This document shows positions 1,683 to 25,846 of a DNA stretch of 32,836 bases, in pieces (the first letter of the stretch is position 1; each line of letters opens with the position of its first letter). Under the pieces are notes generated by a model, which made no database searches, was not told the origin of the DNA, and saw nothing but the letters and a program-made list of their open reading frames with translations. The stretch lies in NCBI GenBank assembly GCA_963619075.1, contig CAVEVJ010000022.1, forward strand, positions 1 to 32,836. Reading direction: 5' to 3'. The DNA comes from Acidaminococcaceae bacterium. GTDB lineage: Bacteria; Actinomycetota; Actinomycetes; Actinomycetales; Bifidobacteriaceae. Position numbers and translations under genes: made by a program.

Positions 1683-1713
1683 TCCGGAATTCGGGATTAA
1701 TCCGGATTCAGTA

Positions 1714-2295
1714 TCAGTCTAGGATTTCGGCCTTGTAGAAGTTCTCGTAGGAGCGGCTGGGCGTGGGGCCGCGCTGGCCTTGGTAATGCGAACCGGTGGC
1801 TGCGGAACCGTAAGGATGTTCGGCGGGCGAGCTCAGTTGGAAGAAGCACATCTGACCGATCTTCATGCCCGGCCACAGCTTCACCGGCAACGTGGACACA
1901 TTCGACAATTCCAGCGTGATATGGCCTTCGAAACCAGGGTCGATGAAGCCTGCGGTGGAGTGTGTGAGAATGCCCAGTCGTCCCAGCGAGCTTTTGCCTT
2001 CCAAACGTGCGGCGATGCTCGAATCGAGCTTCACATACTCCCAAGTGGAACCGAGGGCGAATTCGCCGGGGTGCAGAATCCAAGGTTCGCCTGGCCTCAC
2101 TTCGAACTGCTCGGTCAGTTCGCCCTGGTTCTCGGCGGGATCCACATACGTGTATGCATGGTTGTTGAACAGGCGGAAGAACCGATCCAGACGCACGTCG
2201 ATCGACGCCGGCTGCACCATCTCCGGAGTCCACGGATCGAGCGAGATATGACCTTCGGACTGGGCGGCGAGAATGTCGCGATCGGACAGCAGCAT
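1714..2295 (-). CDS. dcd: dCTP deaminase
   Basis: MLLSDRDI start with [56 protein letters not shown] motifs. The ORF-track extension to 3180 is spurious. Confidence 0.97.
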
Positions 2296-2365
2296 CGAAA
2301 CTCCTTCAAATGTATCCGCGCGCATTCCTCGCACGCAAAAATCAAACTGTCCCCAGTCTAGCGTG

Positions 2366-2457: not shown

Positions 2458-4080
2458 ATGACGGTGACGATGAGACAGCTGCTTACCGATGAGGACCTGC
2501 ACCTCCGAATCGTGTATGACGGCGGCAAAAACAGTTTGGACGGCGGCGTGATTTGGGTGCACGCCACGGATGTGGTGACGGCGGCCGAATATTCGGAACC
2601 CGGTGAGATTCTGCTGACGTGCTCCACGAACTTTCCCCTCGAGGATATGAGCAGCGCCAACGATCTGTCGTTGCTCAAACGCAATCGCCGCAAACTCGGA
2701 TTGAGCTCCCATTTCAAAAACGTCGAAGACGCTTACGACGAGATGTGGATGAAGTATGTGGAGACGCTGAGCCACGCCGGCATCCAGGCGATCGGACTCG
2801 GCGTCGTGATAAAGCATCACGTCGTTCCCAAAGCCCTGCTCGCCGCCGCGGTCAAGTACCATATCGTGCTGTTCGAAGTGCCGGGCGAAGTCAGCTTCTC
2901 CATGATCATGAAGGCGTTCCTCCGTTATCAGTCCGAAGAGGAGGAAACGGCCCAACGTCGAATGTATTCGATCCAGCATGACATGTTCAAAGCGCTGGGC
3001 TCGGACACCCCGCTGGAAAACGTCGTGTCGATGACGACCAGACTCGTCGGGGGATGGGCGGCTTTCGTGGACCATGAAGGCAACGTGCGGTTCGTGTCGA
3101 ACCGTAATATGGCCAAACGCGCCGGCGACCTCTACCGTGAATTCCAAAAACAGCTGGAAACCGAACCCGGCGATATTCACATGATGTACGGCGTCACCTC
3201 TGAAAGGAACCGCTATTTCGTCAGGTCATTGGAATCGGGTGGCAGATCATTGGGATGCGTGATGGCCGCTAGCGGCACTCGTTCCGATAACGGCGAGATA
3301 CTCCGTCCGATTGTGGCCGCGGCAGCCGAAGCAATCACATGCGTGCTTCCGCAGTTGATCGAACGATTCAATGGTATCTCGCGGTTGCGTACCGCGGTGT
3401 TCTGCGAGCTTGCCGGAGGCAACGCGCAATCGGCCATGACGTTCGCCGACGAGCTGTGGCCGACCAGATTCACATTCCCCGCGCGCGTGATGTGCGTGGC
3501 GCAGTCGGGGATAGACGCTTCGCGGCTATATCGGATCTTCGACAGGGAGGTTCCACGGAATCTGCGGATCAACTACGCCATTCATGACGGGCATCTATGG
3601 ATTGTGGCCGCGGAGGATGACCTGGAATGGGTGGGGCAATGGATGGAGGCGGATGGGTCGAGGACTTCCGCGGATAAGACGGTTGAAGGTTTTCCTGCGC
3701 TCGCGGAAGCCTTCGACGAGGTGAAGCGGAGTTTCAGCTTGAGGGAATACGGGCATCGTTCCGGCATATTGGATATCTCCCCGCATGAGCTCGTGCGCCC
3801 GGATGTCGCCCAAGCGTATGCCACGGAACTGCTAGGGCCCTTGCGCGAATTGCCACAGACCGAAACGAACAATCTGCTGCATACCATGCGGGAGCTGCTG
3901 GTAAGCGCGTTTAACGTGGGAGAGGCGGCCGCCCATATGCACGTGCACCGCCATACCGTCGAAAACCGGATGAGGAAAGTGGAGAATCTGCTGGGACTTG
4001 ACCTTTCGACGGAGTCCGATCGAGTGAAATTGTGGATCGCGTGCGCCTTCATTCGAGATTCCATGTCAACTTCATGTTAA
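2458..4080 (+). CDS. PucR/CdaR-family transcriptional regulator
   Basis: N-terminal purine-catabolism regulator domain ([25 protein letters not shown]) and C-terminal HTH ([27 protein letters not shown]). Confidence 0.9.
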
Positions 4081-4369
4081 CTTCAGCATGCGCGTAAGTT
4101 CGGCGACGATACAGTGTCGTATTTCCGCCGATTCCTCTAGGGGGAAAATTTTTTCCACGAAAAACGTGATGATTTCAATGATTATGATACGTGACGGTCG
4201 GTTCTCCGGAAGTTTGTTACCGTCTCTTGTATTCGGATGATATGTCCATCGAAAATCGTTTGCCTGTACAACAAGTACATTGCATCCAACGAACGCTGTC
4301 TCCATAATTTCCAACCATCAAACGCTTGAGAACGAGAGTTCCGGCAGCGACCAAGGAGCAGGGGAAGAG

Positions 4370-5320
4370 ATGCTGAAATACATGTTGAAGCGGCTGCTAT
4401 CCGCCATACCGGTGTTGTTGATCGTTGGAATCATCGCCTTCATGCTTTCTCACATGAGTGGAGGCGATCCGGCGCGAGTGATCGCCGGAAACGATGCGAC
4501 CGATGCCCAGGTGGAAGCCATCCGAGAGCAAATGGGATTGAACTCGTCATTGCCCGACCAGTTGTGGTCGTGGTTTGTCAATCTGCTGCACGGCAATCTG
4601 GGATATTCGTACATCCTGAACGAGGACGTCACGCCCACGATTCTCTCTCATATTTTCCCGACGTTGTCCGTGGCTATCTTTGGAGAGCTCATCTCGCTGA
4701 TCATCGCCATTCCGCTTGGCGTTCTCGCCGCCGACAAGCACGGACGATTCGCGGACAAGGTGGTGCTCGCCTTCGCCACGCTCACCACGTCGTTGCCGAG
4801 CTTCCTTGCCGGACTTCTGCTGATGATCGTGTTTGTGCTGCAGCTGAAACTGCTGCCGGCCAGCGGTTTCGTCGAGCCGTCCGAAAGCATTTCCGGATAT
4901 CTGTCGCATTTGGTGTTGCCGGCGCTTTCGGTGGCCACTTTGCAAATCGCGATCATCTCCAGAATGAGCCGGTCGTCGATGATCGATTCCCTGAGCAGCG
5001 ACTACATTCGGACGGCCAATGCGAAGGGCCTGACACGAACCAGGCAGCTGTGGGTGCACGCTTTCAAAAACGCGGCGATTCCCATTCTGACGATCGTCGG
5101 ACAATCCTTCGGAGAGCTCATCGCCGGCGCCATCGTGGTGGAAACGGTGTTCAACGTTCCGGGAATAGGCCAGCTGGTCGTCAATTCGATTCTGAGACGT
5201 GACTATCAGATGATCCAGGGCGTGATGGTGTTCGTGGCGTTGGCGTTCATCGTGGTCAATCTCGTTACTGATCTGCTGTATGCGGCCATTGATCCGCGCA
5301 TCAGGGAAAGGTCGTTCTGA
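4370..5320 (+). CDS. dppB: Peptide/nickel-family ABC transporter permease (DppB-like)
   Basis: MLKYMLKRLLSAIP start after a purine-rich RBS; GDPA, GNLGYS, DYIRTANAKGL, ETVFNVPGIG, RDYQMIQG. Confidence 0.92.
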   Translation: MLKYMLKRLLSAIPVLLIVGIIAFMLSHMSGGDPARVIAGNDATDAQVEAIREQMGLNSSLPDQLWSWFVNLLHGNLGYSYILNEDVTPTILSHIFPTLSVAIFGELISLIIAIPLGVLAADKHGRFADKVVLAFATLTTSLPSFLAGLLLMIVFVLQLKLLPASGFVEPSESISGYLSHLVLPALSVATLQIAIISRMSRSSMIDSLSSDYIRTANAKGLTRTRQLWVHAFKNAAIPILTIVGQSFGELIAGAIVVETVFNVPGIGQLVVNSILRRDYQMIQGVMVFVALAFIVVNLVTDLLYAAIDPRIRERSF

Positions 5321-5322
5321 TT

Positions 5323-6177
5323 ATGGCTCAGGCAACTCGGAAATCATCCGGCAACAGCTGGATCGCGGCGGTCAAATCGTCGCCGACGACCATCATCGGA
5401 GGTCTGCTTCTCCTACTCATCGTAATCGCATGCTTCCTGCTGCCGTGGGCGCTCAACATGGACGCCTACACCACGGATACCGCGTCGATGACGCTCAAAC
5501 CAAGCGGCGACCATCTGATGGGAACCGACAACGTGGGACGAGACATACTCGCGCGAGTGCTCTTGGGCGGCAAATCGTCGCTCACCGTCGGAATCAGCGC
5601 GGCCGCGATCGCCGGCATCGCAGGATTCATCATCGGCCTGTATTCCGCCTACTATCCGAGGCTCGGATACCTGTTGATGCGTCTGTGCGACGGATTGATG
5701 GCATTCCCCGCGATCCTGTTCGGCATCGTGTTCATCACTTCGTTCGGACAGAGCACGCAGAGCGTGGTGTTCGCACTGTCCATCGTGTTCACGCCGATGG
5801 TCGCACGAGTGGTCCGTTCGGCCACGATGTCGAACATGAACGAAAACTACGTGCAGGTCCTCATCAATCTCGGTGCCAGCTCCTTCCGCATTCTCTGGAG
5901 GAACATAGCGCTCAATGTGATCGCATCATGGCTGGTCGAGGTAACGTTCGTCTTCGCCGACGCGATCCTCGTGGAAGCGGCCATGAGCTTTATCGGCGCC
6001 GGCATCCCGCAGCCGCTGCCAAGCTGGGGCAACATGCTGTACGACAGCCGAACCTACATCTATTCGGCCTGGTGGATGACCGTATTCCCGGGAGTCGCAT
6101 TGGCCCTCACCGTATTCATCATCAACATGTTCGGCGACGGTCTGCGCGAAGTGCTCGACCCCAAGAGAAGGAAGTGA
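5323..6177 (+). CDS. dppC: Peptide/nickel-family ABC transporter permease (DppC-like)
   Basis: HLMGTDNVGRDILAR, EAAMSFIGAG, PSWGNML, GDGLREVLDP. Confidence 0.92.
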   Translation: MAQATRKSSGNSWIAAVKSSPTTIIGGLLLLLIVIACFLLPWALNMDAYTTDTASMTLKPSGDHLMGTDNVGRDILARVLLGGKSSLTVGISAAAIAGIAGFIIGLYSAYYPRLGYLLMRLCDGLMAFPAILFGIVFITSFGQSTQSVVFALSIVFTPMVARVVRSATMSNMNENYVQVLINLGASSFRILWRNIALNVIASWLVEVTFVFADAILVEAAMSFIGAGIPQPLPSWGNMLYDSRTYIYSAWWMTVFPGVALALTVFIINMFGDGLREVLDPKRRK

Positions 6178-6180
6178 CCC

Positions 6181-7188
6181 ATGACGACGCAGACACTACT
6201 CGACGTCAACAATCTCAAGGTGAGCTTTAAAAGCGGCCGCAAGGAATGGAACGCAGCCGTGGAAGGGGTCAACTTTTCCGTGGGATGCGGCGAGATCCTC
6301 GGCATCGTCGGAGAATCGGGATGCGGTAAAAGCGTCACCTCGTTCTCCGTGCTCAGACTGCACGACGAGCGAACCACCCGATACGAAGGCACGGTGACGT
6401 TCGACGGAAAGAACATTTTCGAACTTTCCGATCGCGAACTGCAGAAGCTGCGCGGCAGCGACATCGGATTCATCTTCCAGAACCCGATGTCCAGCCTCAA
6501 TCCGCTGATGACCATCGGCAAGCAGCTGGCGGAAACCGTGACCGCGCACAACAAGAACCTTTCCAAGGAGGACATCAACGGCCGCTGCCTCCAGGCGCTG
6601 GAAGAAGCGGGCGCGAACGATCCGGAAGGATGGTTGCCCAAGTATCCGTACCAGATGTCCGGCGGCCAGCTCCAGCGAGTCGTCATAGCCATGGCTCTGA
6701 TCAACAAGCCGAAACTGCTCATCGCCGACGAGCCGACCACCGCCTTGGACGTGACCATCCAGATGCAGCTGCTCCGCGTGCTTCGACAGCTGCGCGACGA
6801 ACAGGGGATGAGCATCATCCTGATCACCCACGATATGGGCGTTGTGGCGCAGATGTGCGACAAGGTCGCGGTCATGTACCTCGGCCAGGTCGTGGAAAGC
6901 GCTCCGGTCGACGAACTTTTCGCGAACCCGAAGCATCCATACACCCAAGGTCTTCTCGGAGCCACCCCACCTCTTGAAGGAGACCGGCCGGAACGGCTTG
7001 AAACGATTCCCGGTTCGGTGCCGAGATTGTCCGACGTCAAGGCCGGTTGCCGATTCGCATCGCGATGCCCGTTCGCCACGGATCTGTGCAAGACCGGAAA
7101 TATCGGCATGAGCGACATCAACGACCATCACCAGGCGAGATGCGTTCGGCTCTCTCAGAACGATGGATTCAGAAAGACGGTGGCATGA
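6181..7188 (+). CDS. dppD: Peptide ABC transporter ATP-binding protein (DppD-like) with Cys-rich C-terminal extension
   Basis: Walker A GESGCGKS, MSGGQLQRV, IADEPTTALD, HPYT, GCRFASRCPFATDLC...C. Confidence 0.94.
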   Translation: MTTQTLLDVNNLKVSFKSGRKEWNAAVEGVNFSVGCGEILGIVGESGCGKSVTSFSVLRLHDERTTRYEGTVTFDGKNIFELSDRELQKLRGSDIGFIFQNPMSSLNPLMTIGKQLAETVTAHNKNLSKEDINGRCLQALEEAGANDPEGWLPKYPYQMSGGQLQRVVIAMALINKPKLLIADEPTTALDVTIQMQLLRVLRQLRDEQGMSIILITHDMGVVAQMCDKVAVMYLGQVVESAPVDELFANPKHPYTQGLLGATPPLEGDRPERLETIPGSVPRLSDVKAGCRFASRCPFATDLCKTGNIGMSDINDHHQARCVRLSQNDGFRKTVA

Positions 7189-8015
7189 TGAATGAAGAAC
7201 CACGGCCGATCCTGCAGGTCAACAGCATTTACAAGGATTACGTGACGAGAAGTTTCTCGCACGGCAAGGCGGATGTGTTCCATGCGCTGAACAACGTATC
7301 GTTCGAATTGTTCGAAAAGCAGACGTACGCGTTGGTCGGCGAATCCGGCAGCGGCAAGAGCACCACGGGAAAAATCATCTGCGCATTGGAAAAGCCGACA
7401 TCCGGTTCGGTGGTGTTCGAAAACGAAAACTATGTGGACGTCTCACCCCGCAGACTTCGTGAACGCATCCGCGGCAACATCCAAATGGTGTTCCAGGATC
7501 CGTTCTCCGCGCTGAACCCGCGAAAAACCGTCGGCGATGCGATTGTGGAGGCGTTGGAAATCCAGCATATCGGGGCTGACCACGCCGAAAGAAAGGCCAT
7601 CGCCGCGCAAACCCTGGAAAAAGTGGGATTGTCCACATGGCATATGGACCGGTATCCACACCAGTTCTCCGGCGGCCAGCTCCAGCGAGTGAACATCGCT
7701 AGGGCGCTCGCGGTCAAGCCGAAGATCCTCATACTCGACGAATCGGTTTCCGCATTGGATGTGTCGGTCCAGGCGCAGGTGCTCAACCTTCTGCAGGACC
7801 TCAAGGAGGAATTCTCCCTGAGCTATCTGTTCATCACGCATGATCTCAGCGTCGTGCGGTTCATCGCCGATCGTGTAGGCGTGCTGTGTCGTGGAGACCT
7901 GGTCGAGGAGGGGAGTGTCGAGCAGATCTTCTCCAATCCGCAGACCGAATACACGCGCAATCTTCTGAACAGCATTCCGGTTCCCAACCCGGCCCGTCGC
8001 CAACTTGCGGTCTGA
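7185..8015 (+). CDS. dppF: Peptide ABC transporter ATP-binding protein (DppF-like)
   Basis: ATGA overlap with the upstream stop; GESGSGKS, FQDPFSALNPR, YPHQFSGGQLQR, LDESVSALD, ITHDL. Confidence 0.93.
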   Translation: MMNEEPRPILQVNSIYKDYVTRSFSHGKADVFHALNNVSFELFEKQTYALVGESGSGKSTTGKIICALEKPTSGSVVFENENYVDVSPRRLRERIRGNIQMVFQDPFSALNPRKTVGDAIVEALEIQHIGADHAERKAIAAQTLEKVGLSTWHMDRYPHQFSGGQLQRVNIARALAVKPKILILDESVSALDVSVQAQVLNLLQDLKEEFSLSYLFITHDLSVVRFIADRVGVLCRGDLVEEGSVEQIFSNPQTEYTRNLLNSIPVPNPARRQLAV

Positions 8016-8115
8016 CGGGCGCGCCATACGAAACGTCACAACACACAACACGAACAAAACCACAAGGAACAAGCAAACAGACTTTGCCAAACCATTTCAG
8101 GAAAGAGAGGAAATC

Positions 8116-9669
8116 ATGAACAGGTTCGGTAGGAAGATAGTGGCCGTCGCAGCGGCGGCCGCCATGCTCGCCAGCTTCTCCGCCTGCGGATCCGGCTCCA
8201 GCTCGAGCGCGGCCGATGGCGGAACTATCAAAATCGCCCTGGGCGCCAATATCACCAGCCTTGATCCGATGATCACCGGAGCCTATGTTGCCCGAGACAC
8301 GATGCGCAACATGTACGAGTCCTTGGTGACGCTGACCGAAAGCGGCGATGTCGCACCGCTCCTCGCCGAAAGCTACGAGGTCAGCGACGACTATAAGACC
8401 TTCACGTTCAAGCTCCGCCAGGGCGTCAAGTTCCACAACGGCGACACCATGGAAGCGGAGGACGTCGTGGCCTCCATGGAACGCTGGATCGAACTTTCCC
8501 AGGTGGGAAGCACGTTCTTCACCGGCGCCACCGTGGAAGCCACGGACGACGAAACCGTGGTGATCACCTCTCCGGAAGCAGTGTCGACAGGACTGTATCT
8601 GATGGCCGACAGCGCAAGGTCCGCGGCCATCATGCCAAAGGAAGTGCTTGACGCGGCCGACGACACCGGTGTGAAGGAATACGTGGGCACCGGTCCGTAC
8701 AAGTATTCGGATTGGACCAAGGACGTCTCCATCGTGCTGGAAAAGTTCGAGGACTACACGTCTCCGGAAGGCGAGACGGACGGCTATTCGGGCGCACGCA
8801 CCCCTTCGGTCGACAAGCTCGAATTCGATTTCGTCACCGACGGAACGACACGACTGACGGGCGCGCTCAGCGGACAGTACGAAATCGGCTATTCCCTGGC
8901 CGACTCCCAGTACGATCAGGCGAAGTCCGATTCGAACGTGACCGTGGAGAAGGACGAAATGCTCGAAACCCTGGTCTTCAACAAGAAGAAGGGCATCTTC
9001 GTCGACAACCAGAAGCTGCGTCAGGCGATCCTTGCGGCGCTTGATCTGAGCAGCGTGGCGAAGGCCGGCCACCAGAACTCCGACCTGTACACCAACGATG
9101 GCGGTCTGATGCCGGAAGGCAATCCGCTCCGAAGCGAATCCAGCCTTGAGAAGTACAACAATCCGGATCTCACCGAAGCCAAGAAACTCGTTGAGGAATC
9201 GGGCTACGACGGCTCCACCATCAGGCTCATGACCACCAAGGATTATCCGTACATGTACGACGAAAGCATGGAGATCCAGAACGAGCTCAAGGGAATCGGC
9301 ATCACCGTCGACGTGCAGGTTCTCGACTGGGCCAGCGTGATGCAGAAGCTCTTCCAGGAAGACGCTTGGGACATGGCGATCACCAGCTACAGCTATTCCT
9401 CCACTCCGATCTGCTACTCCTTCTTCCAGAGCTCCGGCGCGGGCTGGAACACGGATCCGGAATTCATGGAGATCGCCAACGCCATCAACGCAGCCACCAG
9501 CGAGGATGCGCAGAAGGAAGGCTACGACAAGCTGCAGGACTGGTTCTACGACTACGTGCCGAACATCATCATCAGCAAGTACCAGCAGATCAGCGTGGTC
9601 TCCAACAAGATCTCCGGCTACGGAGCAGGCTTGCAGGGCCCGGTCTACTACAACATGAAGCTCAGCTGA
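8116..9669 (+). CDS. Family 5 ABC substrate-binding lipoprotein (DppA/OppA-like)
   Basis: RBS GAAAGAGAGG; signal peptide with lipobox FSAC; SLDP, YESLV, FTFKLRQGVKFHNG, GTGPY motifs. Confidence 0.92.
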   Translation: MNRFGRKIVAVAAAAAMLASFSACGSGSSSSAADGGTIKIALGANITSLDPMITGAYVARDTMRNMYESLVTLTESGDVAPLLAESYEVSDDYKTFTFKLRQGVKFHNGDTMEAEDVVASMERWIELSQVGSTFFTGATVEATDDETVVITSPEAVSTGLYLMADSARSAAIMPKEVLDAADDTGVKEYVGTGPYKYSDWTKDVSIVLEKFEDYTSPEGETDGYSGARTPSVDKLEFDFVTDGTTRLTGALSGQYEIGYSLADSQYDQAKSDSNVTVEKDEMLETLVFNKKKGIFVDNQKLRQAILAALDLSSVAKAGHQNSDLYTNDGGLMPEGNPLRSESSLEKYNNPDLTEAKKLVEESGYDGSTIRLMTTKDYPYMYDESMEIQNELKGIGITVDVQVLDWASVMQKLFQEDAWDMAITSYSYSSTPICYSFFQSSGAGWNTDPEFMEIANAINAATSEDAQKEGYDKLQDWFYDYVPNIIISKYQQISVVSNKISGYGAGLQGPVYYNMKLS

Positions 9670-9681
9670 GCTGAAATCTGA

Positions 9682-9731
9682 GAACGCCTGCCTGCATCGC
9701 AGGAGTCGCTTAGCGATGCAGGCAGGCGTTC
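9682..9731 (+). terminator. Long stem-loop after the SBP gene (mRNA stabiliser or partial terminator)
   Basis: Perfect 19-bp arms GAACGCCTGCCTGCATCGC (9682-9700) / GCGATGCAGGCAGGCGTTC (9713-9731), 12-nt loop, no real U-tract. Confidence 0.7.
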
Positions 9732-9798
9732 ATTATGCGAACAAGGTGCCGTTGCGAACACCGCATCTGACGAATACCGCACCTGAGGGGAGAGAACG

Positions 9799-11457
9799 AT
9801 GATCAAGCTGGATGCCATCATTGAAAACGGCAATATCCAAACCATGGATCCGCAGCATCCGTATGCGAACCGTATAGGAATCTTCGACGGCAAGATCATA
9901 GGCGTCGACGATGAGATCGAAGGCCTTGACGCCAAGGAACATGTGGACTTGCAAGGCAGGTACGCATGCCCCGGATTCAATGACGTGCACATGCATTTCT
10001 CCCTGCTGGGAGCCAACCTCAACCAGGTGGATCTGCGCAAGCAGACCATATCCACCATGCAGGAGCTGTATCAGAAGGTTGAGCAAGCCTGCCTTGAGGC
10101 TCCGGAAGGCGAATGGGTTCTCGGATGGGGTTTCGACCAGTTCTCGCTCGGCGCGTTCCCGGACATCGACGTTCTTGACGCCATATCGCACGGGCATCCG
10201 GTTCTGGTGCTGCATCTCACCAACCATGCCGCGGTCATCAACACGGAAGCCTTCCGACGTGGAGGCTACGAGCATCCCGACGAAATCGACATTCCCGATC
10301 TGGTCATCAAGGAAAACGGCAAGGCCACGGGACTCGTCAAAGACAAGATGTGCTTCATGTTCACCGGCATAGCCAATCGTGTGACGGAACGAACGCTGCT
10401 GCACCAGCTGAAGCTCGCCGCCGATCAGACGCTGGCGGACGGCATTACCAGCTATTCCGACGCCGGCACCGGCACGGATCGCAATTGGGAAGGCATCGGA
10501 CAGTCCCCGTACGATGTCGGTCTGTTCCAGACCGCATACGAGCAGGGGCTCATCCAACAGCGCGGCACGTTGATGCCGTATTTCTCGGCCTTCCACGATC
10601 TTGGACAGCTTGCCGGAGACCTTCCTGAAGGATTCGGACTCGATTTGGGCATCCGCACCGGTTTTGAAGGCGGGCTGCTGGATATCGGTCCGTTCAAAAT
10701 CATTCTCGATGGCGCGTTCAACAGCATGAGCGCGTATCTCAAGGAGCCGTACGTCAATCAGCCCGACAACCATGGCGTGTTCAGCTGGGATCCGGAAGCC
10801 TTCAAGGAGCAGGTGGCGAAGCTGCATCGCCAAGGATGGCGCATGGCCGTGCATGCCATCGGCGATCAGGCCGTGGATATCGCGTTGGACGCCATCGAGA
10901 ACGCGCAGCGCCTCTACCCGAGGAAAGACATTCGCCACCGTCTCGAACATTGCGGCCTGTGCAGCGAATCGACGGTCGAACGCATCATCCGCGACGGAAT
11001 CGTGCCGAATCCGCAAGGAAGCTTCATCAAAAACAACGGCGACGGATATCTGCCGCTGCTAGGGGAGGAACGGGCAAGGCACGTATACCGGATGGGCTCG
11101 TTCGTGCACAAGGGCGCGATCATCCCCGGATCCACCGACGCCCCATGCGCCCCGCTCGCCCCGATGACCTCAATCGAAGGCATGGTCAGCAGAAAAACGG
11201 CCAACGGTTTCATCCTCGGAGAAAACGAACGCCTGACGATCGACGAAGCGCTCTACGCGTACACATACGGCAGCGCGTACGCCTCGTGCAAGGAAAATGT
11301 GCTCGGCAGCCTGTCGAGAGGAAAGTACGCGGATCTTGCGGTGCTCGACGAAGATCCCCACGACGTGGACGTCGACGCCCTGCATGAAGTGACGGTGGCT
11401 CAAACCATCGTCGGAGGCAAGGTTCTGTACGAAAAGTCGGATTTCGCGGGAAAGTAA
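9799..11457 (+). CDS. Metal-dependent amidohydrolase (Amidohydro_3, YtcJ/NfdA-like)
   Basis: PGFNDVHMH metal motif, KIILDG, VHAIGD, RLEHC, GSTDAP, GSLSRGKYADLAVLD, TIVGGKVLY. Confidence 0.9.
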   Translation: MIKLDAIIENGNIQTMDPQHPYANRIGIFDGKIIGVDDEIEGLDAKEHVDLQGRYACPGFNDVHMHFSLLGANLNQVDLRKQTISTMQELYQKVEQACLEAPEGEWVLGWGFDQFSLGAFPDIDVLDAISHGHPVLVLHLTNHAAVINTEAFRRGGYEHPDEIDIPDLVIKENGKATGLVKDKMCFMFTGIANRVTERTLLHQLKLAADQTLADGITSYSDAGTGTDRNWEGIGQSPYDVGLFQTAYEQGLIQQRGTLMPYFSAFHDLGQLAGDLPEGFGLDLGIRTGFEGGLLDIGPFKIILDGAFNSMSAYLKEPYVNQPDNHGVFSWDPEAFKEQVAKLHRQGWRMAVHAIGDQAVDIALDAIENAQRLYPRKDIRHRLEHCGLCSESTVERIIRDGIVPNPQGSFIKNNGDGYLPLLGEERARHVYRMGSFVHKGAIIPGSTDAPCAPLAPMTSIEGMVSRKTANGFILGENERLTIDEALYAYTYGSAYASCKENVLGSLSRGKYADLAVLDEDPHDVDVDALHEVTVAQTIVGGKVLYEKSDFAGK

Positions 11458-11544
11458 CGACTACGAAAGCTGCCGGCCATATGGAAAGCGCAGCATTGCG
11501 CGTATCAAGGTTCGGTGGCCGAACGGCGGAATTGGAGGAATTCC

Positions 11545-12639
11545 ATGCATGATCTGAGCGGATATCAGGCAATCGCAACACCGCATGAACAAGTGTCGGA
11601 GGATCAGGCGGCTGCGCTGCTGGAACGTGAGTACGGATTGCGGGGCGCGGTGCTGCACCGCATCACCACGGAACGCGACGATACCTTCGAAGTGGCTTTT
11701 CCGCAATCGCGGGAAACGGACGCGGAATCGAATATTGAACCGGACGCGGATCGCCACTATATCCTGAAAATCGAAAATCCCGCGGAATCCTACGAGACCA
11801 TATTGCTGCGCGCGAACGTGCTGCGTCTCCTGCAAGCCGAGGACCCCCAGGTGCCGGCCACCCGGCTGGTCGCATGCGAGGATGGCGGACTACTGTCTTG
11901 CCATGGCGGCGATGAGACGAAACGGTGGGCCACCCTGACCACATTCCTTCCGGGAAGCGTGCTTTCGGGGAAGGACGAACGCCCCACGGAACCGCTGTTG
12001 CAGGACATCGGCAACAAGCTGGCGCGCATGCAGCAGGTGCTCGCCTCACGCAACGATTATCAGGATGAATTGGGACGAGTGCTGTGGGACGTTCGGCTGC
12101 TTCCATTGCTCGCCGAAGACATTCTGCCGATCATCTCCGATGCGCAGACCCGCGGGTTCGTCGAACGCGCGGTACGTGATTACGTAAGCGTCGAACAGGA
12201 AATTGAAAGTCTGCCCGAAACCCTGTGCCACGGCGATTTCCACCCGGGCAACATAACCGTGCGCGACGATGATCCGAACAACATCGCGGGCATCCTCGAT
12301 TTCGGAGACATGCACAAGATGCCCGCGGTGTGCGATTTGGGCACCTGCCTCGCATACCTTGCCGACGACCATGCCTCCCGTCCGTTCCTGCCCTGTGCCG
12401 AGACGGTACGTGGATACCTTCGCATCAATTCCGGCATGAGCAAGGACGAGCTGCGACTGCTTCCCGGCATCATCGAAGCCCGGTACGCGCTGATCATCCT
12501 GCTTCCCACGTTGGTGGAGCACGTCACCGGCCCCAAGGAAGGCCATTATCTTTCCGATCCGGTTTCGCGCGCTCGCAGACTTGCCGGAATGCAGAATTAC
12601 GGATTCGACGCGGTTCTGCGGGATCTTTTCGGTGAGTGA
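11545..12639 (+). CDS. APH/choline-kinase-fold phosphotransferase (hydroxylysine kinase / homoserine kinase type II-like)
   Basis: GGAGG RBS before ATG 11545; ERDDTF, YILKI, LWDV, catalytic HGDFHPGNI, ILDFGD. Confidence 0.85.
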   Translation: MHDLSGYQAIATPHEQVSEDQAAALLEREYGLRGAVLHRITTERDDTFEVAFPQSRETDAESNIEPDADRHYILKIENPAESYETILLRANVLRLLQAEDPQVPATRLVACEDGGLLSCHGGDETKRWATLTTFLPGSVLSGKDERPTEPLLQDIGNKLARMQQVLASRNDYQDELGRVLWDVRLLPLLAEDILPIISDAQTRGFVERAVRDYVSVEQEIESLPETLCHGDFHPGNITVRDDDPNNIAGILDFGDMHKMPAVCDLGTCLAYLADDHASRPFLPCAETVRGYLRINSGMSKDELRLLPGIIEARYALIILLPTLVEHVTGPKEGHYLSDPVSRARRLAGMQNYGFDAVLRDLFGE

Positions 12640-12718
12640 TTGCCGGGCGGCCATTGAAGCCGGTCGGCGATTGACATCGATCGGACATTGAAGTTTTGAG
12701 ATTCATGAGGAAAGGAAC

Positions 12719-14125
12719 ATGGTTATGAAAGTTGCAAAAGGACGCAGTACTTTGGCCAACGCGTTCGACTTTTCCAAGGAGCCGGACTATTTGACGCCAG
12801 ACGAGGCCGATCTGCTTCGCCGTCGCAAGAACGTTCTCGGCACGTTGGGACCGCTGTTCTACGATCATCCGATTCATGTGGTGCGTGGCAGTGAGGCCCA
12901 CCTGTTCGATGCGGCCGGCACCGATTATCTGGACTGCTATAACAATGTGGCCTGCGTGGGCCATGCCAATGAGCATGTTCGTGAAGCGGTGGCCGATCAG
13001 CTGGCCAAGCAGGACACGCATTCACGTTATCTTCAGGATGAGATCATCGACTATGCGGAGCGGCTTCTTGGATATTTCACTCCCGACTACGGCAGTGTGA
13101 CCGATCCGTATCTCGGCGGATTCGACCGCGTGAGCTTCACCAATTCGGGTTCCGAATCCAACGATCTCGCATTGCGTATGGCAAGGGTGTATACGGGCGC
13201 GCAGGGCGTTGTGGTCACGGATAACGCATACCACGGCGTCACTTCGCTGGTGTCTTCCGTATCTCCGAACTTCGGAACGGGCGTTCCACTCGCGCCGTTC
13301 CTGGCCACCGTGCGCGTGTCCGACGTGCTTTCCCAGCTAAGCACGGGCGCGATGGGCGGCGAGGAAGTCACCCAGATTCTTCTGCAGCGTTTCGAGGAAG
13401 CCTTCGAAAAGCTGCATAACGGGGGCTTCGGTGTGTCCGCCGTGTTGCTCGACCAGATTTTCTCGTCCGACGGCGTGCTCCCGGGGAACGCGGGATGGGT
13501 TGCCGCGGTGGCACAGGCCACGCATAATGCGGGCGGTCTGTTGATCGCCGACGAGGTCCAGTCGGGATTCGCGAGGACGGGAGAGGCGTTCTGGGGCTTC
13601 CAGCGTCATCATGCCGACGCGGATATCGTGAGCATGGGCAAGCCGATGGGCAACGGCATTCCGGTCGGAGCCGTCGTCTACAAGTCGCCGATTGGCGATG
13701 CCTTGGCCTCCTGCACCCGGTATTTCAACACGTTTGGCGGCAATCCGGTATCCATGCGTGCCGCCGGTGCCGTATTGGACGAGATTGAAAATCGTGATCT
13801 GCTGCAGCATGCAAAGACCATGGGAGACCGTATCTGCGCCGATATGGAGGCGTTGCTGGGCGACACCCCGCGATTCCTGATGACTCGCCATGCCGGACTG
13901 TTCATCGGCATCGACATCGGTGCGGCGGACGGTTCCGGCGCTCCGGACGCTTTGGGCGCACGAAAGATCATCAGCGCTCTGCGGGATCGCAATATTCTGA
14001 TCTCGGCTTCCGGTGCAAGCGGAAGCTCGCTGAAGCTGCGTCCTCCGCTGGTATTCTCGGATGCCGACGAAGCCCGTCTGATGCAAGCCGTCGAGGACAT
14101 GAAGAAGGAAGATCTCTTCGGCTGA
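12719..14125 (+). CDS. Class III PLP-dependent aminotransferase-family protein, probable amino-alcohol phosphate phospho-lyase (PHYKPL/ETNPPL-like)
   Basis: YLDCYNNVACVGH, FTNSGSESNDLALRMAR, AYHG, IFSSDG, IADEVQSGFAR, SMGKPMGNG (PLP lysine), YFNTFGGNPVS, LKLRPPL. Confidence 0.85.
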   Translation: MVMKVAKGRSTLANAFDFSKEPDYLTPDEADLLRRRKNVLGTLGPLFYDHPIHVVRGSEAHLFDAAGTDYLDCYNNVACVGHANEHVREAVADQLAKQDTHSRYLQDEIIDYAERLLGYFTPDYGSVTDPYLGGFDRVSFTNSGSESNDLALRMARVYTGAQGVVVTDNAYHGVTSLVSSVSPNFGTGVPLAPFLATVRVSDVLSQLSTGAMGGEEVTQILLQRFEEAFEKLHNGGFGVSAVLLDQIFSSDGVLPGNAGWVAAVAQATHNAGGLLIADEVQSGFARTGEAFWGFQRHHADADIVSMGKPMGNGIPVGAVVYKSPIGDALASCTRYFNTFGGNPVSMRAAGAVLDEIENRDLLQHAKTMGDRICADMEALLGDTPRFLMTRHAGLFIGIDIGAADGSGAPDALGARKIISALRDRNILISASGASGSSLKLRPPLVFSDADEARLMQAVEDMKKEDLFG

Positions 14126-14224
14126 TGCCGAGGTGGCGTTGATTCGTTATCGGAAGCGAAGTCGAGGTGGTGCCGAACTACTGTTGGATTGGTTCTGGTT
14201 AAGGAAGGTTCGGAAGGGTTCCGT

Positions 14225-15559
14225 ATGAAGAGTAGGGTTTCGATGGGCGGTTCCCGCGCCTATCTGATGTGGGCGTTGGGCATGGCCGGATATATTTTCG
14301 CGGCCGCGTGCAGGTCGTCTCTTTCGGCAAGCGGAACCCAGGCCGCCGAACAGTTCCATACGACCAGCGCTGCGTTGTCGTCGTTCGTCTATCTGCAGTT
14401 GTTCGTGTATGCGATCATGCAGATTCCCGCCGGCGTGCTGCTGGACAGGTTCGGCCCGCGTCGGCTTATCACGTCGGGATGCCTGTTGATGGCGATCGGT
14501 CAGGCGCTGATGGCGTTGGCGCTGTCGACTCCGGTGGCGGTGTTGGGACGCGCCATTGTGGGTGCGGGCGATGCCACGATCTTCATTTCCGTGGTGCGGT
14601 TGTCGGCGTCGTGGTTTCCTCTGCGCAGATTGCCGTTGATCAATCAGCTGACGGGGCAGATCGGTAGCGTCGGGCAGATCATATCCGTATACCCGTTCGT
14701 GTGGCTGATGGACGCGCAAGGCTGGACTGCCGCGTTCCTGACGGCTTCGGGAACGGGAGTGTTCATTGCGTTCTGCGTGGTGCTCTGCGTGCGAGATAAT
14801 CCGAACCAGTATGGTTTGAAATCCGGAGCGTCGGGAAAGGAAATCGATTTGTCCGCGGTTCTGGGCGGCCTGCGTAAGGCTCTGCGTGTGCCCGGCACGT
14901 TCTGCGGATTCTGGGTGCATAACATAACGTGGTTCTCCAATAGCGTGATGAGCCAGCTGTGGGGTATTCCGTTCCTCATGGCGGTGGAGCAGTACAGCAA
15001 GCAGCAGGCGAGTGCCTTCCTGGCCATCGGTGTGGTGCTGTGCCTGCTGTGGGCTGTGCCGTATGGGCAGATAGCGGCGAAGCATCCGGTTCACGGGAGG
15101 GCCATAATCGTCTACGCGTCGGTCTTGGCGCAGATGTTCGTGTGGGCTGTGCTGCTCGTGGTTCCGGGCCCTCATCCCGTGTGGCTGATGGGTCTGCTGC
15201 TGATCGCTTTGTCGAGTGGCGTCTCCGCGGCCAGTGTTGCGTTCGACTACGTGAGGGACACCAACGAAATCGAGAATCTGGGGTCGGCTACGGGGTTCGC
15301 CAATATCGGCGGTTTCCTTTCGAGTGAACTTGCCTTGCTGGGAGTGGGTGTTCTGCTCGACGTCCAGCATGCCTCGACTCCCGCGTTGTACACGTCTCAG
15401 GTCATGCGCGTTGCGTTCTGCGTGCAGTTCCCGCTGTGGATTATAGGATTGATCGGTTTCACCGTTACCCTGCCTGGAACGCTGCGAATCGTCAGGCGTC
15501 GATTTCGTCGAATCAGTGAGAATCTTGCTTCACAGTCGGATGCAAAGTCGGAGTTGTAG
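14225..15559 (+). CDS. MFS transporter
   Basis: About 12 hydrophobic segments; motif A GVLLDRFGPRR; GSATGFANIGGF. Start uncertain (14225 or 14243). Confidence 0.88.
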   Translation: MKSRVSMGGSRAYLMWALGMAGYIFAAACRSSLSASGTQAAEQFHTTSAALSSFVYLQLFVYAIMQIPAGVLLDRFGPRRLITSGCLLMAIGQALMALALSTPVAVLGRAIVGAGDATIFISVVRLSASWFPLRRLPLINQLTGQIGSVGQIISVYPFVWLMDAQGWTAAFLTASGTGVFIAFCVVLCVRDNPNQYGLKSGASGKEIDLSAVLGGLRKALRVPGTFCGFWVHNITWFSNSVMSQLWGIPFLMAVEQYSKQQASAFLAIGVVLCLLWAVPYGQIAAKHPVHGRAIIVYASVLAQMFVWAVLLVVPGPHPVWLMGLLLIALSSGVSAASVAFDYVRDTNEIENLGSATGFANIGGFLSSELALLGVGVLLDVQHASTPALYTSQVMRVAFCVQFPLWIIGLIGFTVTLPGTLRIVRRRFRRISENLASQSDAKSEL

Positions 15560-19497: not shown

Positions 19498-19584
19498 CAC
19501 GCGGTGTCAGGTCAAGGAATAATCGCCGTCGTACCATCGAAGGTGACCAGTAACGACCATATTCCATATCGTAAGGATGCTGCA

Positions 19585-21879
19585 ATGACGCTCATTCAAA
19601 CCGTTCAGGGCAAGTCCTCCAACGGAACCCGACTCACCGCGGTCTACGCCGAACAAACGCCGGCGAACGTCGCGTTCGCAATCGTCTTCCCCGGCACCGA
19701 TCTGCCGCGACTCGTGCACTGGGGTCGCCCGCTTTCCGCGCCCGAAACCGTGATCGACCTGTTCGACGCACAGGCTCCGCAGCGTGTTTCCGGAGCGCTC
19801 GACTACACCGCATGGCCGAGCGTGCTGCCGACCCAGTCCGAAAGCTGGATCGGCGCCACCCGCTTCAGCGTAAGCCGTGACGGAATCGAACTGTTCTGCA
19901 AGTTCGTAGTCGACGACATCGCCGTCGAAAACGTGAAATCCGGCAACACCTACGAAATGAACGAAAAAGACGGTTACCCGGCATGGACCGTCTCCGACCA
20001 GCCCAAGCAGACGCCGACCGTCACCGTCACCGCCCGAGATGCGGAACAAGGCGTGAAGCTCGTCTGGACCTGCGAACTCGACGAAAGCGGCCTCATCCGC
20101 CAGAACGCCAACGTTATCAACATCGGCGACAGCAAGCTGGAAGTCGGCAAAGTGGAACTCGCGTTCACCGTTCCCGCCGACGCCAACGAAATCCTCACCA
20201 CCACGGGTCACCACCTGCGCGAACGCTCCCCGCAGCGCCAGGACCTCACCGTTGGACGCTTCGAAAAGACGTCCATGACCGGACGCCCCGACTTCGACGC
20301 AACCCTGCTGCTCAACGTGGGCGAGAAAGGCTTCGGATTCACCCACGGCAACGTATACTCCGCACACGTCGCATGGAGCGGCAACAGCGAACTCTCCGTG
20401 GAACGCCTGCCGTACACAAGCGGCATCATCGGCGGCGGCGAAGTGCTGTTCGGCGGTGAAATCGTCCTCGACACCAACGAGGGCTACACCACACCGTGGC
20501 TCATCGGCTCCTACGGCAAAGGACTCAACGAAGTGGCGTCCCACTTCCACTCCTACTTGCGCCGCGTACACCGCGACTGGCTTGCCGAACACAACATCGC
20601 ACCCAAGCCGCGCCCGGTAATCCTCAATACTTGGGAAGCCGTGTATTTCGGCCACGACTACGACACCCTCACCGCGCTCGCCGACAAGGCAGTGGAAAGC
20701 GGCGTCGAACGCTTCGTGGTGGACGACGGCTGGTTCGGCTCCCGCCGCGACGACACCTCCGGCCTCGGCGACTGGGAGATCTCGCAGGACGTGTGGCCCG
20801 ACGGAGACAAGTCCCTCAAGGCGCTCGCTGACTACGTGCATGGCAAGGGTCTTGAATTCGGCCTGTGGTTCGAGCCGGAAATGGTGAACCCCGATTCCGA
20901 CATGTTCCGCGCGCATCCGGATTGGGTGCTCATGCCGACCCGTAACCGTATGCCGATGCAGGGCCGTACCCAGCAGGTCGTGGATTTGACCAATCCCGAA
21001 GCGTACGCCTACATCTACAGCGCGATGGACAAGCTCGTCGGTGAGCTCGGCATCGACTACATCAAGTGGGACCACAACAAGCTCGTCACCGAAGCGGTCT
21101 CCCCGTACTCCGGTCGTCCCGCGGTTCATGAGCAGACGCTGGCCGTATATCGGATCTTCCATGATCTGAAGGCCGCGCATCCTGGTCTTGAAATCGAAAG
21201 CTGCTCTTCCGGCGGTGGCCGCGTGGACCTCGGCATTCTCGAAGTGGCCGACCGTATCTGGGCATCCGACTGTGTGGATCCGCTGGAACGTGCCGACATC
21301 CAGCGTTACACGTCGCTGCTCGTGCCGCCGGAAATGATCGGCGAGCATGTTGGAGCGTCCCCCGCGCACTCCACGCATCGCGCGACCACGCAGGAACTGC
21401 GCATGGCGATGGCGTTCTTCGGACATATGGGCATCGAATGGAATCTGCTCAAGGAACCGCAGTCCGACATCGACAAGCTTGCCGAATGGGTCGCCGAATT
21501 CAAGAAGCATCGCGAATGGTTCGCGGTCGATACGGTGGTGCATTCCGATGCGGCCGATCCGGCCGTGCGACTGGACGGTGTGGTCATGCCGAACAAGGCG
21601 GCGGCAATCTACCGCTTCACCCAGGTGACCACCTCGCAGACCTATCCGGCCGCACCGGTCCGTCTGCCCGGCCTCGATCCGGACACCGTGTATGTGGTTT
21701 CGCCGCTTGATGTGAGCCTTGATCTGACCAAGCAGGACATCACCAATGGTCAGAGCCCGCTCGGCTGGTGGAGCGCCGATGGCGTGAAGATGACCGGTCG
21801 CGCGTTGGCCACCTACGGTGTGCGCCCGCCGTCCCTCCACCCGGCTCAGGCTGTGCTCTTCAAGGTCGTAGCCGCCTGA
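19585..21879 (+). CDS. aga: Alpha-galactosidase, GH36
   Basis: LNTWEAVYF, FVVDDGWFG, FGLWFEPEMVN, YIKWDHN (nucleophile), ESCSSGGGR, WASDCVD (acid/base). Confidence 0.96.
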   Translation: MTLIQTVQGKSSNGTRLTAVYAEQTPANVAFAIVFPGTDLPRLVHWGRPLSAPETVIDLFDAQAPQRVSGALDYTAWPSVLPTQSESWIGATRFSVSRDGIELFCKFVVDDIAVENVKSGNTYEMNEKDGYPAWTVSDQPKQTPTVTVTARDAEQGVKLVWTCELDESGLIRQNANVINIGDSKLEVGKVELAFTVPADANEILTTTGHHLRERSPQRQDLTVGRFEKTSMTGRPDFDATLLLNVGEKGFGFTHGNVYSAHVAWSGNSELSVERLPYTSGIIGGGEVLFGGEIVLDTNEGYTTPWLIGSYGKGLNEVASHFHSYLRRVHRDWLAEHNIAPKPRPVILNTWEAVYFGHDYDTLTALADKAVESGVERFVVDDGWFGSRRDDTSGLGDWEISQDVWPDGDKSLKALADYVHGKGLEFGLWFEPEMVNPDSDMFRAHPDWVLMPTRNRMPMQGRTQQVVDLTNPEAYAYIYSAMDKLVGELGIDYIKWDHNKLVTEAVSPYSGRPAVHEQTLAVYRIFHDLKAAHPGLEIESCSSGGGRVDLGILEVADRIWASDCVDPLERADIQRYTSLLVPPEMIGEHVGASPAHSTHRATTQELRMAMAFFGHMGIEWNLLKEPQSDIDKLAEWVAEFKKHREWFAVDTVVHSDAADPAVRLDGVVMPNKAAAIYRFTQVTTSQTYPAAPVRLPGLDPDTVYVVSPLDVSLDLTKQDITNGQSPLGWWSADGVKMTGRALATYGVRPPSLHPAQAVLFKVVAA

Positions 21880-21911
21880 TTCGCGACGGTTCGGGAGTAC
21901 TGACCAAACCC

Positions 21912-22144
21912 GACTATCCCCGTATCGACGCAGGACGTATCACCTGCGTCGATACGGGGATACCAGCCGAGTTTGACTATCTCCATACCGACGCAAACGC
22001 AGGGTTTCGCGGTTGTATGGGCATAGTCGTCAGTCTCCGGTATGTCCAAACCGACGCAAATACGGGAGTTTGCGGTCGTATGGGTATAGTCGCCGGACTT
22101 CAGTATGTCCGTATCGACGCAAACCGTCGAATCTACGGGCATGC
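21912..22144. repeat. Four degenerate 63-bp tandem units, each an inverted repeat (REP/BIME-like)
   Basis: TATxxCCxxAxCGACGCA core in units starting 21912, 21975, 22038, 22101; the first unit has a perfect 20-bp stem (21915-21934 / 21943-21962). Confidence 0.8.
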
Positions 22145-22191
22145 AGGCATGCAGGCATGCGGATGGTAATGAACGCAGCGTTGCGGCGCAT

Positions 22192-23394: not shown

Positions 23395-23420
23395 CGGTGT
23401 CACGTCCTTAGAACAACTTA

Positions 23421-23439
23421 ACTTTTCCAGAATAACAAA
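23421..23439 (+). promoter_or_regulatory. Candidate ROK operator in the divergent regulator/SBP promoter
   Basis: 14/19 match to the site upstream of aga; TAAAAT -10-like hexamer at 23489-23494. Confidence 0.4.
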
Positions 23440-24874: not shown

Positions 24875-24888
24875 GGGGAGGAAAGAAA

Positions 24889-25827: not shown

Positions 25828-25846
25828 GGGTAAAGGGGAAGAAAAC

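Follow-up and report, generated by a model that had tools for sequence, protein, structure and literature searches.

A bifidobacterial gene cluster joins a family-5 ABC importer and a YtcJ-like amidohydrolase to a predicted kinase and phospho-lyase pair

A 32,836-nucleotide stretch of DNA (hereafter the window), which is contig C22 of a Bifidobacteriaceae genome assembly of 382 contigs and 76.6% completeness, carries a cluster of ten open reading frames (ORFs), all on the + strand, between positions 2458 and 15559. ORF calling combined with Pfam and NCBIfam domain scanning shows that these genes encode a transcription regulator, an ATP-binding cassette (ABC) importer of family 5, a metal-dependent amidohydrolase, a small-molecule kinase, a class-III pyridoxal 5′-phosphate (PLP) enzyme and a major facilitator superfamily (MFS) transporter. 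A preliminary description of this DNA had named ten co-oriented genes with these functions and positions, and the domain profiles bear it out. We favor, with moderate confidence, the view that the cluster imports an amide-linked compound, likely frees an amino alcohol from it, phosphorylates the amino alcohol, and then eliminates phosphate and ammonia. The features of the cluster are as follows.

2458..4080, + strand: PucR-family transcription regulator, 540 amino acids (Pfam PucR 6.9e-13, HTH_30 1.1e-16)
4370..5320, + strand: DppB-like ABC permease (BPD_transp_1 1.6e-43, plus BPD_transp_1_N); ORF from 4280, likely start ATG 4370
5323..6177, + strand: DppC-like ABC permease (BPD_transp_1 5.6e-22), beginning 3 bases past DppB
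6181..7188, + strand: DppD-like ABC ATPase (ABC_tran 4.1e-27, oligo_HPY 6.8e-21)
7185..8015, + strand: DppF-like ABC ATPase (ABC_tran 9.2e-34, plus oligo_HPY); ORF from 7047, likely start 7185
8113..9669, + strand: family-5 substrate-binding lipoprotein, SBP (SBP_bac_5 1.8e-71); ORF from 8005
9682..9731, + strand: strong GC-rich hairpin without a T tract, found by folding, directly 3′ of the SBP gene
9799..11457, + strand: YtcJ-like metal-dependent amidohydrolase, 552 amino acids (Amidohydro_3, PF07969, 1.8e-79 over residues 49-544)
11545..12639, + strand: APH-fold small-molecule kinase, hydroxylysine-kinase-like (APH 3.1e-28); ORF from 11515
12719..14125, + strand: class-III PLP enzyme of the ammonia phospho-lyase group, 468 amino acids (Aminotran_3 1.3e-57)
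14225..15559, + strand: MFS transporter (MFS_1 5.6e-29); ORF from 14189

Inspection of the N-termini makes later starts likely for five genes (DppB, DppF, SBP, kinase and MFS transporter). A comparison with the ESM Atlas also suggests the kinase start at 11545, and the DppF start at 7185 overlaps the DppD stop. The last five genes are separated by gaps of 58-130 bases, with the kinase gene ending 80 bases upstream of the PLP-enzyme gene, and the neighbor downstream of the cluster lies on the opposite strand in convergent orientation. A terminator scan found no convincing terminator within the cluster, and the site at 4132-4146 is weakly terminator-like.

At the core of the proposal is the gene pair for the kinase and the PLP enzyme. 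When compared with the PDB, the PLP enzyme matches phospholyase 5G4I at 2e-88 and human ETNPPL (6TOR) at 8.1e-76, whereas the best transaminase, GabT, is matched at 8.8e-35. Identity to 5G4I is about 45% over residues 26-448, and the segments GKPMGNG (with the PLP lysine) and ADEVQ (with the DEVQ motif) align with 5g4i and 6tor. Residues K308, D278 and E279 are invariant in 14 homologues of the enzyme. The best NCBIfam match is the C-terminal part of the kinase-aminotransferase fusion PRK06148, at 1e-101 and below the cut-off. Fold and motifs, a closer relationship to lyases than to transaminases, and an adjacent APH kinase are thus all in place, and by family placement we predict that the enzyme is an ammonia phospho-lyase of the ETNPPL/PHYKPL/5G4I group (hereafter the lyase).

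We take 5G4I and 5G4J to be A1RDF1 of Arthrobacter aurescens TC1. Cuetos and colleagues reportedly found in 2016 that the A1RDF1 phospholyase is active on O-phosphoethanolamine. Loci of Paenarthrobacter and Arthrobacter resemble the window in that an APH kinase lies directly upstream of the lyase. The window enzyme differs from 5G4I, its best solved match, by an insertion at about residues 117-131 and by its position in a separate, long-stemmed Bifidobacteriaceae clade. This clade was defined with a quick maximum-likelihood tree of 97 lyase sequences, from which we excluded high-scoring segment pairs spanning less than 380 residues of the query, along with rows from two loci whose DNA was already represented. 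Lyases linked to ABC importers make up 16 rows with full support (SH-aLRT 100) on a stem of 0.6 changes per column. They join a Microtetraspora sequence, a placement that we flag as long branches meeting.

Might the PLP enzyme instead be a transaminase, or have some other PLP activity on a phosphorylated or free amine, such that the pair makes a keto-phosphate or serves another purpose? Such an activity would be compatible with the long, fully supported stem that sets the clade off from all other sampled sequences, with a family membership that rests on the similarity to 5G4I in a clade without a characterized member, and with NCBIfam matches that fall below their cut-offs. Nevertheless, we judge it improbable. 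The two nearest characterized proteins are both lyases, and their scores surpass those of all transaminases by 40-50 orders of magnitude. A tightly linked APH kinase is the hallmark of the lyase group across phyla, and a fuller form of the cluster found in relatives already has a separate GabT-like transaminase.

The kinase shows the fold of the APH family by Pfam, together with an HxDxxxxN motif, a DFG-type motif and an ATP-binding lysine. In an alignment of 18 kinase sequences, the motifs HGDFHPGN and DFGD are invariant, as are H239, D241, N246, D262, G264 and D265, and K85 is nearly so. We assume that these residues have the catalytic, metal-binding and ATP-binding roles of their counterparts in the APH family. 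A profile search against the PDB ranks 6ef6 first (5.8e-13), followed by amicoumacin kinase and homoserine kinase, in a range from 6e-13 to 7e-11. The 6ef6 entry, whose title is merely 'Aminoglycoside phosphotransferase', is presumably the (S)-1-amino-2-propanol kinase of Mycobacterium smegmatis. The best NCBIfam match is the N-terminal part of PRK06148 (1.5e-36, below the cut-off). In the ESM Atlas, the nearest structures are APH domains of fusions with Aminotran_3, and the nearest clusters bear the automatic name 'Hydroxylysine kinase family protein'. By similarity, the kinase belongs to the hydroxylysine-kinase-like APH group, and the case for 5-hydroxy-L-lysine as the specific substrate consists of just these automatic names. 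An antibiotic-resistance kinase, a role prompted by the amicoumacin and aminoglycoside kinase matches, was judged unlikely given the constant pairing with the lyase.

Human hydroxylysine kinase (HYKK, AGPHD1), 5-phosphohydroxylysine phospho-lyase (PHYKPL, AGXT2L2) and ethanolamine-phosphate phospho-lyase (ETNPPL, AGXT2L1) likewise pair an APH-fold kinase with a class-III PLP enzyme. Veiga-da-Cunha and colleagues are said to have been led to these human assignments in 2012 by bacterial kinase fusions. PRK06148 and PRK06149 are such kinase-aminotransferase fusions, and PRK06148 is the best NCBIfam match for both window proteins. The window differs in having two genes 80 bases apart, scores far below the 1128-bit cut-off and no M23 domain. 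It differs from the human systems in that the pair is encoded by separate bacterial genes, whose operon also specifies a PucR regulator, an MFS transporter, an amidohydrolase and an ABC importer. A kinase and PLP-enzyme pair of the HYKK/PHYKPL-ETNPPL kind had been proposed at the outset, and profiles, PDB matches and Atlas neighbors all agree with that view. To our knowledge, few kinase-phospho-lyase pairs have been assayed, namely the human enzymes, the Arthrobacter phosphoethanolamine lyase and the mycobacterial aminopropanol kinase. A literature search found no assay of the bacterial fused forms.

The third enzyme of the cluster has the TIM-barrel fold and the metal-ligand set of the YtcJ-like amidohydrolases (PF07969), as judged from Pfam, an alignment and an AlphaFold2 model with a predicted local distance difference test score of 90. 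Residues H64, H66, K300, H352, H384 and D447 are invariant across 18 homologues and presumably serve as metal ligands (the HxH pair, a carboxylatable lysine, two histidines and an aspartate). A fold search with the model matches 3icj and 3igh at E 1e-36. These two uncharacterized Pyrococcus proteins are the only close folds and are followed by generic superfamily members, which give no clue to the substrate. We predict that the amidohydrolase carries out the amide-cleaving step.

The importer has the complete family-5 architecture, with two permeases, two ATPases that carry an oligo_HPY tail, and one SBP_bac_5 protein. The SBP has a signal peptide with the lipobox-like sequence LASFSAC and is predicted to be an exported lipoprotein. 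Its best solved relative is the agropinic-acid binder AgaA (6hlx, 4.4e-37), followed by 8vdx and 5u4o, whereas Escherichia coli DppA is matched at just 1.6e-15. The AgaA importer of Agrobacterium and the DppA importer of E. coli share the same five-component architecture. None of the importer genes reaches the cut-off of an NCBIfam equivalog model, so no substrate class can be assigned in this way. Import of nickel or a metallophore was considered because of the best NCBIfam names of the permeases, and is unsupported, as every score lies below its cut-off.

How the genes travel together was assessed in 200 sampled Bifidobacteriaceae genomes. The PLP enzyme has a match at E 1e-80 or better in 47 of them, and these matches form three classes: one of 15 genomes at 64-96% identity, one of seven genomes at 44-46%, and a widespread class at 40-44%. 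Among the 15 orthologue loci, three from near-identical genomes repeat the ten genes of the window and their flanks in the same order, at 86-100% protein identity. Seven further loci, which bring the total to three genera, are rearranged relative to the window and retain 39-88% protein identity overall (ABC importer 66-88%, amidohydrolase 68-77%, kinase 39-51%, lyase 59-70%). In four loci the kinase-lyase pair stands behind a different importer without the amidohydrolase, and one more locus is cut by a contig end. Apart from this truncated locus, an APH kinase sits beside the lyase on the same strand in every case (14/15).

The preliminary description had linked the pair to the family-5 importer and the amidohydrolase, and this linkage is confirmed. 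Amidohydrolase orthologues of at least 68% identity occur in 10 of the 200 genomes, and each of the ten shares its locus with the kinase-lyase pair and this same ABC importer; no orthologue was found away from the pair in this sample. A synteny search beyond the family gave a different picture. In 400 sampled genomes of other Actinomycetota there are ten weaker homologues (31-36% identity), none of which has a kinase, lyase or amidase gene as a neighbor within roughly 9 kb. The link between the amidohydrolase and the kinase-lyase pair is specific to the Bifidobacteriaceae orthologues.

Comparison of the window with the three near-identical genomes gives ratios of nonsynonymous to synonymous substitution rates (dN/dS) of 0.01-0.22 for the ten genes, all of which are under purifying selection. 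The least constrained are the kinase (0.12-0.22) and PucR (0.10-0.13), and no gene of the cluster evolves faster than that for the kinase, at 85-91% identity where its neighbors are at 95-100%. Given the recurring gene order in relatives and the low dN/dS values, the ten-gene arrangement reflects more than chance.

The four loci without the amidohydrolase form a variant with its own importer. The variant's SBP is close to E. coli DppA (7.9e-65), in contrast to the AgaA-like SBP of the window, and its gene is downstream of an M1 aminopeptidase gene. An amidohydrolase match at E 1e-40 is absent from three of the variant genomes, and the fourth carries only a 42% paralogue elsewhere. The loci L039 and L040 have near-identical lyases (branches 0.02-0.03) but differ in what lies upstream of the kinase, which in one locus is the importer set with amidase and amidohydrolase, and in the other a different Dpp set with a short-chain dehydrogenase/reductase. 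This difference points to recent swapping of modules about a fixed kinase-lyase core.

The seven more distant loci carry extra co-oriented genes relative to the window. In the fullest form there are 13 genes, in the order PucR, aminotransferase, DppBCDF, SBP, amidase, amidohydrolase, MFS transporter, Zn-dependent alcohol dehydrogenase (Zn-ADH), kinase and lyase. The amidase-signature protein of about 680 amino acids (PF01425, NCBIfam PRK06565) is encoded between the SBP and amidohydrolase genes, and the Zn-ADH of 347-368 amino acids directly ahead of the kinase. Both were identified by Pfam in three loci and by tblastn in records of Bifidobacterium subtile and B. aquikefiri; in three further loci, ORFs of similar size, judged by size only, occupy the same gaps. 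A GabT-like class-III aminotransferase (E. coli GabT 1.3e-87) lies between PucR and DppB in all five loci that were extended upstream. It has a sub-threshold match to 2-aminoadipate transaminase, at 350 bits against a cut-off of 650. A PucR homologue of 42-45% identity heads four of these five loci, and a divergent one of 26% heads the fifth. In L040, a 2-hydroxyacid dehydrogenase gene follows the lyase gene.

The amidases of these relatives are closest to Tse8 (1.8e-137) and next to a peptide amidase (about 2e-42). One example is L040:9538-11559 on the - strand, which together with its orthologues falls near Pseudomonas aeruginosa Tse8 (PDB 6te4). Tse8-like amidases therefore appear, from their gene neighborhoods, to occur also as ordinary members of catabolic operons in bifidobacteria.

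This fuller form bears on the earlier claim that the cluster is self-contained, which does not hold: the aminotransferase, the amidase and the Zn-ADH are all absent from the window. Its intergenic gaps are too short to hold remnants of the three genes, and tblastn against the whole source genome, at its completeness of 76.6%, found no orthologue elsewhere. Since the window's group nests among full-set loci on the lyase tree, gene loss is the simpler reading, and we infer that the window holds a trimmed form of the 13-gene cluster. A decaying remnant was also considered and is ruled out by the intact state of all genes and by purifying selection across four genomes.

The MFS transporter gives weak NCBIfam matches to transporters of D-galactonate, oxalate/formate and L-lactate, none of which comes near its cut-off, and this weak similarity hints at an anion-type transporter. 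Of the ten loci with an amidohydrolase, nine contain the MFS gene, in one of two positions, and the four readable loci without the amidohydrolase lack it. The transporter thus travels with the hydrolase part of the cluster, and the earlier proposal that it exports the carbon skeleton was an overstated guess. It probably exports the released acid or the end product, and it could also import something.

A structural feature between the two halves of the cluster recurs in relatives. The 101 nucleotides at 9660-9760 around the post-SBP hairpin have a minimum free energy of -50 kcal/mol (z = -4.5 against 200 shuffles). Hairpins of unrelated sequence stand at the equivalent position in eight of nine relatives checked (L036-L038, L040, L042, L044, L048 and L050). 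The structure is kept while the sequence is not, a pattern as for an intercistronic stabilizer or attenuator, and the hairpin may act as a transcript stabilizer or a partial terminator.

Kinase-lyase pairs of other kinds are also found in these bacteria. In the widespread class at 40-44% identity, represented by L054, an operon encodes an APH kinase, an APC-type amino-acid permease, a lyase and a GntR/UTRA regulator. In the 44-46% class (three Bifidobacterium genomes, L051-L053), the lyase gene is followed about 0.9 kb further on by an APH kinase gene and then by an amino-acid permease gene, as identified by Pfam on L051. On the lyase tree these two permease-linked classes are sisters (98) within an Actinomycetota group, apart from the ABC-linked clade. 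The source genome itself carries a kinase/APC permease/lyase/GntR-UTRA system, split over the short contigs C335, C172, C95 and C209 and 80-96% identical to the L054 operon. The novelty suggested for the genus stands in part: our literature search found no paper on the version with ABC importer and hydrolase, whereas the pathway type is not unique, given two other kinase-lyase systems, one of them in the source genome.

These permease-linked systems invite comparison with a characterized locus. Mallette and Kimber reportedly described in 2018 the aminoacetone/1-amino-2-propanol utilisation (RMM) locus of Mycobacterium smegmatis, which includes an (S)-1-amino-2-propanol kinase. The RMM locus, also from Actinomycetota, shares the logic of a kinase followed by a phospho-lyase. 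The window cluster has an ABC importer and an amidohydrolase in place of the permease, and a Pfam scan of 26 window ORFs revealed no bacterial microcompartment shell or permease domain of the kind that would mark an RMM locus. The bifidobacterial kinase/APC permease/lyase/GntR system resembles the RMM locus more closely. For actinobacterial ethanolamine use, passages of a review (PMC9397018) describe a gamma-glutamylation route and not a kinase-lyase one.

In a wider set of 80 loci from many phyla, an APH kinase gene adjoins the lyase gene on the same strand in 51. Fourteen of the 80 have at least three family-5 ABC parts no more than 10 kb away, and in eight of these 14 they are on the strand of the lyase. 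Loci from Proteobacteria (L135, L105, L103 and L063) offer a parallel to the bifidobacterial 13-gene form. L135, from Variovorax, contains DppBCDF, a 2-hydroxyacid dehydrogenase, a class-III aminotransferase, an EamA transporter, GntR, the kinase, the lyase and an amidase. L105 and L103 are from Bradyrhizobium; L105 has SBP5-DppBCDF, a 2-hydroxyacid dehydrogenase, the kinase and the lyase, with a class-III aminotransferase on the opposite strand. In L063, from Acidovorax, an M20 peptidase follows the lyase. Greedy longest-ORF calling in high-GC loci produced several wrong frames without a Pfam match, and those rows were ignored. The same functional set thus appears to have been assembled more than once, and independently in Proteobacteria.

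These comparisons also bear on whether the ten genes form one pathway at all. They might merely be neighbors, with an importer for peptides or a metallophore and its regulator placed next to an amidohydrolase of unrelated function, a module for amino alcohols and a transporter. Several facts could be read in this way: the post-SBP hairpin could end a transcript, the kinase-lyase pair is coupled to a different importer in other genomes, the best matches of the permeases are to nickel-type models (below cut-offs), and family-5 ABC sets are common, yet accompany the pair in only the 14 wider loci just mentioned. Even so, we consider mere adjacency very improbable. Amidohydrolase, importer and kinase-lyase pair stay together in ten of ten genomes of three genera despite rearrangements in which the MFS gene has moved and three genes have been lost. 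In addition, the gaps are short, no strong terminator interrupts the cluster, and Proteobacteria have analogous sets.

From the family placements and the shared locus, we infer a single route. The family-5 importer would take up an amide-linked compound, from which the amidohydrolase would likely release a molecule with neighboring amino and hydroxyl groups. The kinase would then phosphorylate the hydroxyl group with ATP, and the PLP enzyme would eliminate phosphate and ammonia to give an aldehyde or ketone. Finally, the MFS transporter would probably export the released acid or the end product, and PucR would mediate induction.

In the 13-gene parent pathway, an omega-amine and its beta-hydroxylated analogue might be converted to a common aldehyde, which would then be reduced or oxidized. 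Specifically, one and the same aldehyde would result from H2N-CH2-CH(OH)-R through the kinase and lyase and from H2N-CH2-CH2-R through an omega-transaminase. Candidate pairs may include lysine and hydroxylysine, gamma-aminobutyrate and 4-amino-3-hydroxybutyrate, or putrescine and 2-hydroxyputrescine.

Several points weigh against a route of this kind. For the kinase, a single-sequence search against the PDB gave no match, and all NCBIfam matches are below their cut-offs. The lyase clade has a long stem (0.6), its identity to the closest characterized lyase is only about 45%, and we know of no assayed member in this clade or in this amidohydrolase family. The substrate of the amidohydrolase might be unrelated to that of the kinase, because its nearest structures are uncharacterized and its weaker homologues lack kinase and lyase neighbors. 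Furthermore, the kinase-lyase pair occurs without the amidohydrolase in four genomes, so deacylation is not obligatory, and the post-SBP hairpin may divide the cluster into two transcripts. Nor does the gene set of the window, in which the aminotransferase, the amidase and the alcohol dehydrogenase are missing, account for the fate of the aldehyde.

A substrate bulkier than free ethanolamine or aminopropanol is likely, because a family-5 ABC importer is present here in place of the amino-acid permeases of the two other bifidobacterial systems. Candidates are hydroxylysine-containing peptides, compounds of the gamma-amino-beta-hydroxybutyrate (GABOB) type, compounds of the hydroxy-polyamine type, and N-acyl amino alcohols.

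The preliminary description had given collagen-derived hydroxylysine as its example. One specific version of this idea holds that collagen-derived 5-hydroxylysine is imported as a peptide or acyl derivative, deacylated and phosphorylated by a true hydroxylysine kinase, giving 2-aminoadipate semialdehyde, ammonia and phosphate. The automatic names of the kinase's nearest Atlas clusters accord with this version, and an ABC importer instead of a permease favors a larger substrate. The DppA-like SBP and M1 aminopeptidase gene of the hydrolase-free variant fit an amino-acid-type amino alcohol that arrives as a dipeptide. Likewise, the aminotransferase of the fuller cluster, with its sub-threshold resemblance to 2-aminoadipate transaminase, and the adjoining 2-hydroxyacid dehydrogenase could handle the alpha-amino-acid end. 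However, there is no hydroxylysine-specific sequence feature, and the names are automatic labels derived from the human enzyme. The SBP of the window is nearer to the opine binder AgaA than to DppA, Amidohydro_3 and amidase-signature enzymes are not typical peptidases, and aminoadipate semialdehyde would call for an aldehyde dehydrogenase where the fuller cluster has a Zn-ADH. The named carriers are B. aquikefiri, B. aquikefiricola, B. tibiigranuli and B. subtile, which we take to stem from sewage and water kefir, settings in which collagen is no obvious nutrient. On balance, we regard collagen-derived hydroxylysine as an unlikely substrate.

A broader proposal extends beyond the bifidobacteria, and we offer it tentatively, as a possibility that we ourselves hold to be doubtful. 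Here the cluster would represent a widespread and so far undescribed bacterial route for amide- or peptide-bound amino alcohols, built from an ABC importer, an amide hydrolase (Amidohydro_3, amidase or M20), a kinase, a phospho-lyase, a GabT-like transaminase and a dehydrogenase. Bifidobacteriaceae, Comamonadaceae and Bradyrhizobium would each have put this route together on their own, and its substrate would be hydroxylysine peptides or a comparably complex amino alcohol. For bifidobacteria, it would amount to a dedicated nitrogen harvest.

Two other parts of the window lie outside the cluster. Positions 19504-32834 are devoted to sugar metabolism typical of bifidobacteria, with a GH36 alpha-galactosidase, a ROK protein, two family-1 sugar ABC systems, a LacI regulator and a GH13 enzyme. 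Between a P-type ATPase gene and PucR, the coding strand is uncertain for an ORF at 1780-2361 (+) or 1697-2233 (-) that has no Pfam or NCBIfam match. In the three near-identical genomes, identity falls to 79-82% for this ORF, against 98-99% for the genes that flank it.

Kinase and phospho-lyase pairs are common in bacterial genomes, and the enzyme pair is already known in kind. By contrast, the version with importer and hydrolase is uncharacterized. The preliminary description knew of no such pathway in bifidobacteria, and our literature search found no description of such a cluster in these bacteria, nor of bacterial clusters of this type. Here the pair goes together with an importer that uses a binding protein and with a hydrolase whose family is uncharacterized, which provides three handles on the natural substrate: the ligand of the SBP, the substrate of the hydrolase and that of the kinase.

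Why would a sugar-fermenting bacterium maintain such a system? The most likely benefit is a supply of ammonia. Bifidobacteria are usually viewed as sugar specialists, and yet they carry up to three different modules that are predicted to deaminate amino alcohols. If hydroxylysine peptides or another host- or food-derived amide prove to be the substrate of the importer-linked module, then a function would be assigned to YtcJ-like amidohydrolases, and the cluster would confer a new nitrogen-scavenging trait on these organisms.

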